A stretch of 64,000 bases of DNA from Chlamydiales bacterium (GTDB lineage Bacteria; Chlamydiota; Chlamydiia; Chlamydiales; JAAKFR01): positions 258,584 to 322,583 of the forward strand of contig JACKPM010000001.1 of the NCBI GenBank assembly GCA_024233495.1, given 5' to 3'. The notes beneath the pieces were generated by a model, which was not told where the DNA came from, did no database searches, and was given only the letters and a program-made list of their open reading frames with translations. Position 1 is the stretch's first letter, and the number at the start of each line of letters is the position of its first letter. The position numbers and the translations under genes are program-made. This document shows, one piece after another, positions 1 to 51,999 of this stretch.

Positions 1-974
1 GACGCACAGCACTTTTGAACCTGCTTCCAATGAGTCTGTATGAGCTTCAAAATGCAGGTTTTGAAATCTCACTAGAAGAAGCTCTTTTGTATGGTGGGTA
101 TCCCAGAATATACAAAGATGAGCTAGATCCAACAAAAGCATATCGCAATTACTTTCAAACGTATGTTGAGCGCGACTTGCGGCAACTTATTCAGATAAGA
201 GATCTATCTTTATTTCAACGCTTTGTGAAGATGTGCGCGGGTCGCATAGGTCAGATTGTCAACCTTGATAGCCTTGGTGGAGAGGTGGGGATTTCTGCAA
301 ATACCGTCAAAGAGTGGATCTCTATTCTAGATGGTGTCGTCAAATTTTCTCCTTTGTCAGCCGGATCTTTTCTGCCAAAATGCGCCCTCGCAACCTCGGA
401 AGTAGCGCTTTGGCTACTCCCTTCGCTTTCGATTGCGCATTTTGCCTAGAAAATCTCTCGCCTCACAAAGGAGAAAATTTGACGACACCATCTAGAAGCC
501 TCTTTTATTCTGATTCGTTTGCGGCCCTATTTTGAAAATTTTGGGAAAAGAGTGATCAAGTCACCCAAACTTTACTTTACAGATGTTGGGCTGGTGAGCT
601 ATTTGCTCGATATCGAAAACATTCAACAAATTTCACGAGACCCATTGCGGGGGCAGCTTGTTGAAAACTTAGTTGTCCTCGAGCTAATAAAAAGTCGATA
701 CAATCAAGGGCTTGATCCGCAGCTCTACTTTTTTCGAGATTCGAATGGGCGTGAAGTAGACTTGATCTTTAAGCAGGCAAATCAATTGATTCCGATCGAG
801 ATTAAAGCTGCAGAAACATTCAATACCTCTTTTCTAAAAAATCTGAACTTCTTTAAGAAGCTAGTAGGAGAGCGGTGTGAAAAAAAGTTTGTCGTGTATG
901 CTGGGCAAGAAGAGCAAGAAGGGGAGAATTTTTCTCTGGTCAATTTTCATCACGCGCACAAGATTGTAAGGTGA
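1..974 (+). pseudogene. AAA+ ATPase with DUF4143-type C-terminal domain. It is 5'-partial at the window edge and split by a MITE-A insertion into ORFs 15..449 and 519..974.
   Basis: The frame is open from base 3. Removing 330..492 plus one TA joins ...KEWISIL to EASFILIRLRPYFENFGKRVIKSPKLYFTDVGL in frame, a motif typical of DUF4143 ATPases. In the host frame the insert brings a TAG at 447..449. Confidence 0.7.
330..492 (+). mobile_element. MITE family A, copy 1 (163 bp foldback element), inside the AAA ATPase gene
   Basis: It has perfect 28-bp terminal inverted repeats, GATGGTGTCGTCAAATTTTCTCCTTTGT. TA flanks lie at 328..329 and 493..494 within a CTAG context. It is near-identical to five other copies in the window. 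Confidence 0.9.
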
Positions 975-1087
975 GTCAGTGAGATTATACAGTTTTTTAT
1001 TGCTATTCGTGTGTACGGGGTGCTGCTGCTATACGCAGACAGAGCGTCCTTATATGATTGGGAAGACTCCAGTGGAAGCTCAGCCAA

Positions 1088-2554
1088 CTATTGCTGAGTC
1101 CACTCCTTCTTAAGTGTCGCGAGCCTTTTATTTGAGACGCCGCCCAAGAAGTTGATAGCATTGAGGAGGCGAGCGCGTGTGATATCCCGGCCCAAAATCT
1201 TTACAGAGTCAAAGAGAGGAGGCCCCTTCTCTTTTCCCATAATCGTACCAAAGAGAAGCGCCATCACCACTTTTTTGTGGTGCACTTCGAAGTGCTCTGC
1301 GACGCGGTGCGACGCTTGCTCAATCCCTGTATTCGACCAATCTTCACTCTCTTCCATCGACCATATGACGCACTGCAAAATGCAGGCCGCTGTTGTGGGG
1401 TCGATGTTTTTCGGAGTGAGGAGCTCTTGTGTGTAGGGCAGGTGGTTAATGAAGAAGAAGTCACACAGCTCGATAAATTCGCCAAACGTTTTGATGCGCG
1501 TATGCACAAGCGGCATGAGTTTTTTCATGAAGGTATCTGAAAAGCCCCACTCACGGATACGCCCCCAAAGCTTTTCTTCGGGAATATGGTTGATGAGGTA
1601 GTGCTGGTTGAGCCAGTCGAGCTTTTTAATGTCAAAAACCGCTCCTGACTTTCCAATCCGTTTTGCATCAAAGTGCTCAATCACTTCATCGAGTGAGTAG
1701 ATCTCCTTATCTTCGGGCATGCTGTAGCCCATAAGGGAAAGGAAGTTGAGAAATCCTTCGGGGAGGTAGCCGCTATCGCGGTAAAAGAAAATGGAGGTAG
1801 GGTTCTTTCTCTTGCTGAGCTTTTTGCCATCGACTCCAAGAAGAAGAGGCATGTGCAGGAACTCGGGAGGCTGCCATCCAAAGTGCTCATAGAGGAGGAT
1901 GTGTTTTGGAGTAGAACTAATCCACTCGTCGCCGCGGATGACGTGCGAAATTTTCATGAGGTGGTCATCCACAACATTTGCGAGGTGGTAGGTAGGAAAA
2001 CCATCTGACTTGAGGAGCACCTGGTCGTCGATGTCAGCCCATGGCACGGTGATGCGCCCTTTGATACGGTCTTCAAAGACACACTCGCCAGTGAGCGGTA
2101 CTTTGAGACGGAGGGTGAAGGGCTGCCCCTCCCGGGCTTTGATCTCCTCTTGGGATAGGTTGCGGTAGCGACGGTCATAGCCGCCTGCTTTGCGCATTTC
2201 GCGCATCTCTGCAAGCTCTTCGGCTGTTGCAAAGCATTTGTATGCCTTTCCCTCTTCAAGAAGTTGATACGCATATTTTTTATAGATGTCGGAGCGTTCA
2301 GATTGTTTGTAAGGAGCGTAGGGGCCTCCGATATCTGGTCCCTCATCCCACTGCAACCCACACCACTTGAGGGCGTCAAAGAGGTTGCGCTCATACTCCG
2401 GTCGGCTACGCGATTGGTCGGTATCCTCAACGCGTAGAATAAAGGCGCCTTTATGGTGACGTGCAAAAATATAGTTAAAAAGTGCCATGTAAGCGGTGCC
2501 TACATGAGGGTCCCCAGTGGGGGAGGGCGCGATTCGAACACGTATATCAGACAT
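1088..2554 (-). CDS. gltX: Glutamate--tRNA ligase
   Basis: 488 aa. Class I signature region [16 protein letters not shown] and KLSKRK (KMSKS-type) motif. Confidence 0.95.
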
Positions 2555-2572
2555 AGTGCAAGGGAGTATAAT

Positions 2573-50555: not shown

Positions 50556-50623
50556 TGGCGAAATTTTATATGATTGTCTTTAAAGAGGATAAGATCTATT
50601 CTTTGGTGCAAAAAGGAGAGCGC

Positions 50624-51676
50624 ATGACTTCATATGTAGAACAAGCAATAAGAGGGGCAGCTGAGGGTGCATGGAATGGTACTTTTGGAGGGTGGCTGCA
50701 AATGGGGAAACTCGCTGTTGGTGGTGCTTGCCACTTGGTGACAAGACCAAGAGAGTCCTGGAATTCGGTGTCAAGCGGTGTTGCTTTTGCTTGCAGAGAT
50801 CCCAGAGCTGTTGTTGAGGCTGTCAAAGGGGTAGCTATAGACTGTTTTTCAAATATTAAAGATGAGTTTGAGCAAAAGCCAGTTGAGGTAACAACGCGCA
50901 TTTTCACACAACTCATTGCTGGAAGAGTTCTTTCTGCTTGGCTATTGCCGAAGACAAACATGGGGCTGCTTTCTGAGGCTAAAAACGTAAACGCGCGTCA
51001 GCTTATCGCGGGCATTCGCAAATTTGTTGAAACTGGAGACGTTGCGGCCTTGCAGCGAATTGGCATCCCTGTGAGTGATGTTGCTAGATTGGCTGCAAAA
51101 GAGATTAGAGAAATTAATAGATTGGGTTTCGTTGGGCGAATAGTGAATCGGGATCTTCAACGGCGGGTGATAGAATTTGGGGAGCAACTTGCATCGATTG
51201 TTAAGCAAGCAGAAGGTCTACTTGATGGTGATACTGCCGCGCGGCTGGCTGAGCTTCAGCGTGCCCTTGTAGCTTCGCGAGCTAACATGGTCTTTTCCAC
51301 TTCAGCAGCGGTATCATTGGCAACGAATTCTAGAGGGGATGGCAATGCCTTACAAATAGAGTTGCCTGGGGACGTATTTACACCTCAAAATGCTCAGGCT
51401 AGTGACACAGGAGAAGAGGAGCTACGTGAAGCAGAAGACGGTGAGTCTGTTTCTTCCTTGCCGCACATTGAAAGTGTGGCTGTAGAAGATGCGCCAAAAG
51501 AAACGCGGACCAGAAAAATAGAGAGATGTAGGCAGCATTTGGAGATGTTGGAGGTAAAGTTTAAGGCTAAGCAAGGGCGTGGGAGCTCCACAAGAGCGCG
51601 CGCTGCAAGCATATCGTCCCAAATCATTGTTCATAGAGAGCGCCTACAGATGCTCGTTGCAGGCCAAAAGATATAG
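50624..51676 (+). CDS. Hypothetical protein (no recognisable domain; acidic and coiled-coil-like C-terminal part)
   Basis: ATG at 50624 with AGGAG 6 nt upstream. 350 aa. I recognise no family motif. Confidence 0.55.
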   Translation: MTSYVEQAIRGAAEGAWNGTFGGWLQMGKLAVGGACHLVTRPRESWNSVSSGVAFACRDPRAVVEAVKGVAIDCFSNIKDEFEQKPVEVTTRIFTQLIAGRVLSAWLLPKTNMGLLSEAKNVNARQLIAGIRKFVETGDVAALQRIGIPVSDVARLAAKEIREINRLGFVGRIVNRDLQRRVIEFGEQLASIVKQAEGLLDGDTAARLAELQRALVASRANMVFSTSAAVSLATNSRGDGNALQIELPGDVFTPQNAQASDTGEEELREAEDGESVSSLPHIESVAVEDAPKETRTRKIERCRQHLEMLEVKFKAKQGRGSSTRARAASISSQIIVHRERLQMLVAGQKI

Positions 51677-51836
51677 CGCTTGCTCCTTAGACTTGCTTTT
51701 CTTTTAATTTTTGAGGCAGTTGTAGTGACTAAGCCAAGCGCTGCTGCAGCTGTGCCGATACGCCCTGTGAATTCAGACGCGCCACTCGCCCTTCCAACGC
51801 GACGACTCTACCCATACAAGCTGTGCATGTTGTCTA

Positions 51837-51999
51837 GATGGTGTCGTCAAATTTTCTCCTTTGTCAGCCGGATCTTTTCTGCCAAAATGCGCCCTCGCAA
51901 CCTCGGAAGTAGCGCTTTGGCTACTCCCTTCGCTTTCGATTGCGCATTTTGCCTAGAAAATCTCTCGCCTCACAAAGGAGAAAATTTGACGACACCATC
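51837..51999 (+). mobile_element. MITE family A, copy 6
   Basis: 163 bp. TA at 51835..51836 and 52000..52001, in a CTAG context on both sides. Confidence 0.9.

Follow-up and report, generated by a model that had tools for sequence, protein, structure and literature searches.

A 64-kb window of a chlamydial genome (64,000 nucleotides, positions 258,584 to 322,583 of contig JACKPM010000001.1; coordinates below are those of the window) carries six copies of a short foldback element, here called family A, which we interpret as a non-autonomous transposable element of the miniature inverted-repeat type (MITE) that duplicates the dinucleotide TA, has been active recently and is most likely moved by a transposase of the IS5 family (IS427/IS1031 clade). 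We put the probability of this reading at about 0.8. That the element is a MITE is supported by its copies, its tips, its foldback structure, the TA duplication, an empty site, its copy number and the polymorphism between strains.

Copies, target site and movement of family A

BLASTN of the element against the window returned six full-length copies and zero fragments, at 330..492 (copy 1), 5419..5581 (copy 2), 17227..17388 (copy 3), 25509..25671 (copy 4) and 51837..51999 (copy 6) on the plus strand and, inverted, at 49793..49954 on the minus strand (copy 5), exactly the set that an earlier, sequence-only reading of this DNA had listed. The copies measure 163 bp, or 162 bp in the case of copies 3 and 5, and hold no transposase gene, the longest frame of the consensus, as read from the sequence, being about 24 codons. 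Their near-identity, also claimed by that reading, amounts to 94.5-100% in pairwise comparison; copies 1 and 6 are 100% identical, and copies 2 and 3 show two to four differences from copy 1. Perfect 28-bp terminal inverted repeats had been ascribed to every copy, which is true of copies 1 and 6 but not of the other four, each of which has one mismatch or indel. The 28-mer GATGGTGTCGTCAAATTTTCTCCTTTGT matches the window 11 times at up to three mismatches, compared with 0 matches expected from shuffles; the remaining, twelfth arm, on the left of copy 3, is 1 nt shorter, one A being missing from its A-run. Folding bore out the expectation that the whole unit can form one long hairpin, both as RNA (-87.4 kcal/mol, z = -13) and as DNA (-52.1 kcal/mol, z = -12).

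All six copies have TA on both sides (at 328-329 and 493-494 for copy 1). The bases outside the TA are C and G for copies 1, 5 and 6 (C-TA / TA-G), C and C for copy 2 (C-TA / TA-C), T and G for copy 3 (T-TA / TA-G) and C and A for copy 4 (C-TA / TA-A). Copy 1 on its own cannot separate duplications of 2, 4 and 6 bp, its target being the palindrome TCTAGA, but the length is resolved as 2 bp by copies 2, 3 and 4, the flanks of which are asymmetric. Duplications of 3 bp (CTA or TAG) and 4 bp (CTAG) were considered and rejected, as two or three of copies 2-4 are at odds with each of these models, whereas a 2-bp TA duplication is the sole model that fits all six flanks without invoking mutations. 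The target-site duplications are thus consistent throughout, and the earlier identification of TA as the duplicated target holds, with the 165-bp difference between filled and empty site described below pointing the same way. The outer left base is C in five of six copies (background 23%, p = 0.003) and the outer right base G in four of six, and the full CTAG target surrounds three of six copies compared with 3.5% of the TA sites in the window (p = 8e-4). The sequence-only reading was therefore right about a preference for CTAG, but its list of flanks overlooked the C-TA / TA-A of copy 4. CTAG is rare in the window, with 95 sites observed and 243 expected from base composition; scarce as it is, it is the preferred target of family A and also the flank of the insertion sequence (IS) found in the window.

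Near-identical DNA is present in metagenome runs X1, X2 and X5 (activated sludge), X3 (aquatic metagenome) and X4 (origin not known). The DNA in X1 is an almost perfect match to the window, and that in X3 represents a sister strain in which roughly 0.5-1% of positions differ. At copy 1 an X3 contig of normal depth (10.3) joins position 325 directly to 491, omitting 165 bp, that is the 163-bp element and one TA, so that X3 shows ...CTCTATTC-TA-GAAGCC... as its empty site, compared with ...TTC-TA-[163 bp]-TA-GAA... in the window. In the window copy 1 lies within a gene for a DUF4143-domain protein and splits it into ORFs (open reading frames) 15-449 and 519-974, which carry domain positions 1-64 and 64-159, respectively; removing the 165 bp in silico yields one continuous reading frame. 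Copy 1 is a gene-disrupting insertion particular to the window's strain. Copy 6 is missing from X3 as well, within a 258-bp indel (joint 51829->52088). Copies 2 and 3 are present in X3, in which one contig terminates in the left arm of copy 2 at 5442 and another begins in the right arm of copy 3 at 17365. Hence the identical copies 1 and 6 are strain-specific and the diverged copies 2 and 3 are common to both strains, the pattern expected of ongoing transposition. The presence/absence polymorphism that the sequence-only reading had proposed to look for thus exists, and its suggestion of recent or ongoing mobilisation is upheld, above all by the clean empty site of copy 1.

The number of copies in the genome was inferred from the depth of the collapsed core contig in metagenome assemblies and is not a direct count. 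The core contig has a depth of 304.7 in X1, compared with 7.7-9.4 for single-copy flanks, and 336.8 in X3, compared with 10.3. At a position diagnostic of copy 4 the collapsed depth is 311, 372, 89 and 150 in X1, X3, X4 and X5, and the corresponding genome depth is ~8.5, ~10.4, ~3.6 and ~3.3, which indicates about 25-45 copies per genome. As the ratio of core to flank is alike in four samples of unequal abundance, the copies can be argued to belong to this organism. An estimate of hundreds of copies, from a summed arm depth of 4000-6700, was discarded; it had added together overlapping contigs of 37-40 nt, and the core contig gives ~35. Loose contig ends show that a few truncated or internally deleted copies are present too.

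Six copies in 64 kb are a local excess over the rest of the genome, in which ~35 copies over 2-3 Mb (an assumed genome size) would give about one per window, and this density is what could suggest a local duplication or an assembly artefact limited to this contig. We give that explanation practically no chance and regard it as refuted: in four independent run assemblies the depth of the element is ~25-45 times that of single-copy DNA and its flanks are many and different, and within the window each copy has unique flanks and a TA duplication of its own. The copies are thus not confined to the window, a possibility that the sequence-only reading had named as fatal to its proposal.

The settings of the copies other than copy 1 have gene ends in common. 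Each of copies 2-6 has a stop codon close by on one side or both, at a distance of a few to ~135 nt; copies 2, 3 and 4 are located in the gap where two genes converge, and each of these gaps also contains a copy of a second foldback element, family B. Copy 2 lies between an HTH_17 gene (4895-5323) and recJ (5887-7647), copy 3 between argS and a radical-SAM gene, and both stand beside a family B element. Copy 5 follows a gene for a tail-specific protease, 3 nt past its stop codon, and tRNA-Phe lies 200 nt downstream of it, and copy 6 is downstream of a plus-strand gene. Gene 3' ends may be the insertion sites that are tolerated, and amber stop codons would provide (C)TAG targets. Copy 4 is nested: its insertion point is exactly the right-hand TA of the duplication that flanks family B copy 3 (...TTTGAC-TA-[A]-TA-AGCC). 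A TA seemed to be missing at this junction, which is resolved once the family B tips are read as GTCAAATCGG followed by that element's own TA duplication, and copy 4 is a regular nested insertion. At other places in the genome, ends of family A and family B are frequently joined to each other.

A position just past gene 3' ends in five of six copies, in three of them between convergent genes, together with the extreme stability of the RNA hairpin, would also be in keeping with structural or regulatory repeats that the host maintains by selection, such as terminators, hairpins for RNase III or mRNA stability, or REP-like sequences. We hold this to be highly improbable and saw nothing that would support a function for the host. 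Copy 1 disrupts a gene and is absent from X3, where the TA target is clean; moreover, no T-run follows the stem, and a search for intrinsic terminators (a G+C-rich stem plus a T-run) found none in or at the elements. The sole promoter-like site, TTGTCA-16-TGCCAAAAT, scores 9/12, which is not above chance. Family A has no match in Rfam either, the best candidate, Sso133, reaching 18 bits compared with a gathering score of 44 bits, and over the whole window tRNA-Phe alone attains its threshold. REP/REPIN-RAYT systems consist of palindromes of 20-40 bp with a GTAG/CGTC tag and a RAYT gene and lack target duplication, so that the TA duplications and transposon-type tips seen here are foreign to them; an identity with these systems was rejected on the grounds that family A is 163 bp long, duplicates TA and has DDE-type tips, and no Y1/RAYT gene occurs among the window ORFs scanned. 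Should a copy be co-transcribed with the gene upstream, the 80-bp perfect duplex of its RNA would be a plausible substrate for RNase III, a kind of processing reported for the Correia elements of Neisseria.

The IS5-family insertion sequence and the proposed source of the transposase

We propose that a DDE transposase, supplied in trans, would bind and cleave family A at its 28-nt inverted tips, and that integration would take place at TA, preferably in CTAG, by a 2-nt staggered cut, the repair of which would leave TA on both sides. The enzyme may come from an IS of the type found in the window, or else from another one that lies elsewhere in the genome, belongs to the same clade and has identical tips.

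The IS of the window (57756..58668, plus strand, 913 bp) belongs to the IS5 family and is flanked by C-TA / TA-G. Its GAGGGTGTCC tips, GAGGGTGTCCAAAAATTTAAC, form perfect inverted repeats of 21 nt, or of 24 nt with the flanking CTA. Two ORFs (57820-58230 and 58275-58652) contain the domains DUF4096 and DDE_Tnp_1, and a -1 shift at ACAGAAAAAGGGG fuses them into a DDE transposase of 277 aa, which scores 214 bits with the NCBIfam IS5-family model NF033580 and is ~50% identical, end to end, to transposases of 278 aa. The depth of the IS relative to the genome is ~2.7x in X1 and X4 and ~6-9x in X3, and the collapsed contig of X3 shows no indel over the shift site. As the two-ORF form has proliferated, a programmed frameshift is favoured over decay. 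Where flanks are shown, the other IS copies in X1, X3 and X4 start and end at TA, with one exception.

Members of the IS427 group are 832-865 bp long, have direct repeats of 2 bp and encode two ORFs with a frameshift (PMC3281130). The window IS, at 913 bp, shares with them the two frameshifted ORFs, the TA flanks, the GA-type ends and the presence in several copies, and family A shares the 2-bp duplication. The nearest relatives of the window transposase are, in contrast, mostly IS1031-like, with a single ORF, 278 aa and 3-bp T-N-A duplications, and judged by these features the window IS falls between the IS427 and IS1031 groups.

Tips were compared ungapped over 21 positions, anchored at the tip, with p values from the shuffled family A tip. 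The tip of family A, GATGGTGTC, agrees with that of the window IS at 14/21 positions (p = 4e-5) and with that of L049, the closest relative found (transposase 58% identical), at 16/21 (p < 1e-5); both are given by GAGGGTGTC. The agreement is 8/21 with the tip of family B (p = 0.22) and 6/21 with that of family C (p = 0.69), a third foldback element of the window. The pattern GA...TGTC is common to the tips of further relatives, including L001, an IS on the Neochlamydia plasmid pS13 (GAGGATGTC), and an IS in a Tisiphia genome (GAGCTTGTC). The match of 14-16/21, together with the shared C-TA...TA-G flanks, favours an IS5-type source over one of the IS630/mariner type, and we consider it somewhat more likely than not that family A derives from the IS427/IS1031 clade of the IS5 family; the sequence-only reading had named no transposase family.

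Several observations weigh against this reading. We found no IS with the tips of family A (GATGGTGTCGTCAAATTTTC), and the window IS differs from them at 7/21 positions. Most relatives of the window transposase duplicate 3 bp (T-N-A) and not 2 bp. The number of copies assumes that all of them reside in this organism, which the constant ratio of depths supports without proving. In addition, a TA duplication with a preference for CTAG is also a signature of IS630, and an IS630 could lie outside the window. The second and the last of these points would suit a MITE moved by an IS630/Tc1-mariner transposase, a bacterial 'Stowaway-like' element, the likeness to IS5 tips then being a coincidence. The 2-bp TA duplication and the CTAG preference fit such an element but are equally part of the IS5 reading and do not discriminate between the two, and mariner is known to target TA (PMC5481204). 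Among the window ORFs scanned there is no gene of the IS630/DDE_3 type, the sole hint being a weak match to HTH_Tnp_IS630 (E = 0.008) in the 142-aa HTH_17 protein, whereas the window does hold an IS of the IS5 type, the copies of which are TA-flanked, often as C-TA/TA-G, and the family A tips match those of the IS5 clade far above chance. An IS630-type mover is, in our judgement, improbable but not negligible, and an enzyme of the IS5 family remains the most likely one to move family A.

Other mobile and variable segments of the window

Family B, a foldback MITE with tips GTCAAATCGGTTGAAAATTTTAC and a TA duplication, is found at 5679-5883, 16997-17155 and 25351-25506. It tends to sit in (TA)n tracts, and all three copies share their convergent-gene gap with a family A copy. 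Copy 1 has an extra internal segment of ~46 nt, and copy 3 provides the stop codon of ORF 24257-25366. Family B is also seen within one X3 copy of the IS, inserted at the TA at 58234-58235. The foldback element of family C (39764-39928, tips TATATAGCGGATTGTTTTTTAAA) is absent from X3 (joint 39762->39925), and the interiors of families B and C are 73-79% similar.

The 6.5 kb from 52160 to 58667, which comprise the IS and genes for a histidine kinase (53263-55773) and a CHASE-PAS sensor (56172-57521), are absent from X3. The end of the X3 joint coincides exactly with the right IS tip (...CCTGCTT|CTAGAGCTG), suggesting that the IS was associated with a deletion or an acquisition. Right after tRNA-Phe a segment of 210 bp (50228-50442) is missing from X3 (joint 50232->50443); the segment at the 3' side of the tRNA gene holds an inverted repeat of 35 nt (50228-50262 / 50299-50333), and the 210 bp could be a further case of a small mobile element located where a tRNA gene has its 3' end. 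The region ~52150-52400 has 3-9 times the depth of the genome and many alternative joints in X1 and X3, and is hence a dispersed repeat with one copy in the window; neither an Rfam match nor a convincing ORF was found in it. Finally, in the gene for an Hpt/GGDEF/receiver protein (36629-38629) 79 differences separate X3 from the window over 2 kb, compared with ~0.5% elsewhere, and this segment may have recombined or may evolve fast.

Known systems, relatives and the chlamydial host

MITEs derived from IS5-family elements have been described in Porphyromonas gingivalis, with the tips of ISPg1/3/4/9, and in Neisseria, where ATR is linked to ISNme1 (PMC4596501). Like them, family A is short, non-coding and multi-copy, has GA... 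ends that resemble those of a resident IS5-family IS, duplicates its target and varies between strains in its filled and empty sites. The P. gingivalis MITEs have tips identical to those of the IS or within 1 nt of them, whereas family A agrees with the resident IS at 14/21 positions, and it further differs in being a full-length foldback with 28-nt perfect tips, in its strict TA duplication and in its chlamydial host.

MITEs of the IS630/Tc1-mariner type include Stowaway-like elements and the pneumococcal RUP, and a preference for CTAG has been reported for IS630. They share the TA target and its duplication with family A, the tips of which resemble those of the IS5 clade instead. The Correia elements of Neisseria (NEMIS) are foldback MITEs of ~100-160 bp with a TA duplication, present in tens to hundreds of copies and often located at gene ends, and we know of no IS with tips identical to theirs. 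The tip of family A is unrelated to that of Correia elements, and for family A neither a strong outward promoter nor an IHF site was shown; it is the family C tip (TATAGCGGATT...) that recalls the Correia tip, TATAG[C/T]GGATT.

Among obligate intracellular bacteria, MITEs are documented as the QMITEs of Coxiella burnetii (PMC5896051). These and the palindromic elements of Rickettsia are, as is family A, small palindromic mobile repeats in an intracellular lineage; we found no sequence relation of family A to either, and unlike these elements family A displays current polymorphism at the level of strains. Our literature search, which was incomplete, found no paper on MITEs in Chlamydiae, and tip sequences in the texts of papers were found to be primers only. 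Family A otherwise represents ordinary MITE biology, in an unusual host, and points to no new mechanism.

Exact 20-mers of the family A tip have 0 matches in the GTDB species genomes, among which the source genome is not included, and in the JGI metagenomes, and BLASTN of family A against plasmids and phages gave chance matches only (E >= 2). A relaxed two-part pattern, which asked at each end for no more than TA and nine tip bases, with a spacing of 125-155 nt, matched 3 genomes and 17 metagenome contigs. Three of these matches were set aside, two being located in a coding region without a fold (z about 0) and one being a telomere-like repeat. The remaining elements are 148-170 bp long, have perfect tips of 11-20 nt and interiors unrelated to that of family A, and fold end to end, with z = -3 to -11 when the interior alone is shuffled; several of them share with family A a CGGAT(T/C)TT motif ~30 nt from the tip. 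About a dozen metagenome contigs carry them, with flank and tip TA|GATGGTGTC, as do Crenobacter oryzisoli and two metagenome-assembled genomes (MAGs), one of the Rickettsiales and one of the Oscillospiraceae. In the Rickettsiales MAG (JBIPLF010000001.1, locus L004, 3100-3248) a 149-bp foldback with an interior unrelated to family A has the TA flank and the first 17 tip bases of family A and lies in an intergenic gap, one neighbour of which is a Mur ligase gene. The tip-sharing elements that were examined sit at gene 3' ends, and there is no transposase gene at the examined loci. As the relaxed search matched no other chlamydial species genome, family A seems to be lineage-specific within the phylum and was probably acquired horizontally. 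It is a tentative idea, to which we give somewhat less than an even chance, that family A is the chlamydial branch of an undescribed superfamily of full-length foldback MITEs of 148-170 bp that spans phyla.

The host belongs to the Chlamydiota, is uncultured and comes from activated sludge. Among the genes of the window are ordinary housekeeping genes as well as those for a SecD/SecF fusion of 1506 aa and for a cysteine-rich outer membrane protein of the OmcB type (Chlam_OMP6), and the EF-G encoded in it is at most 89% identical to its best match in the protein collection, its named matches, at 79-87%, being nearly all Chlamydiales or Chlamydiota MAGs; an exact look-up of this EF-G had no match. 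The sequence-only reading had taken mobile DNA to be usually scarce in such a lineage, a claim that does not hold in general for environmental chlamydiae: Rhabdochlamydia oedothoracis has 415 transposase genes (PMC9723776). In the light of that number in one genome, the load of elements here is less surprising than was assumed. What is of interest in family A is the direct view of current activity, the disruption of a gene, a probable IS5-type partner nearby and the elements with shared tips in other phyla.

The genomes of chlamydiae are commonly described as stable and streamlined, and few genetic tools exist for these bacteria. Here, a chlamydial lineage has small transposons and a probable IS partner that are moving now, nest in one another and differ between strains that are ~99% identical. 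Family A insertions offer a natural marker for typing strains of wastewater chlamydiae, and the 277-aa IS5-type enzyme, with tips of 21-28 nt and a TA target, is a candidate pair for a transposition tool. Tips common to Rickettsiales and other phyla are a small case of horizontal traffic in mobile DNA among hosts some of which are intracellular, and the superfamily, if it is real, would imply a shared autonomous IS with horizontal transfer among unrelated bacteria, which may include intracellular ones that possibly share protist hosts. If our interpretation is correct, family A would be, within the literature searched, the first case on record of a MITE system that actively transposes in the Chlamydiota.

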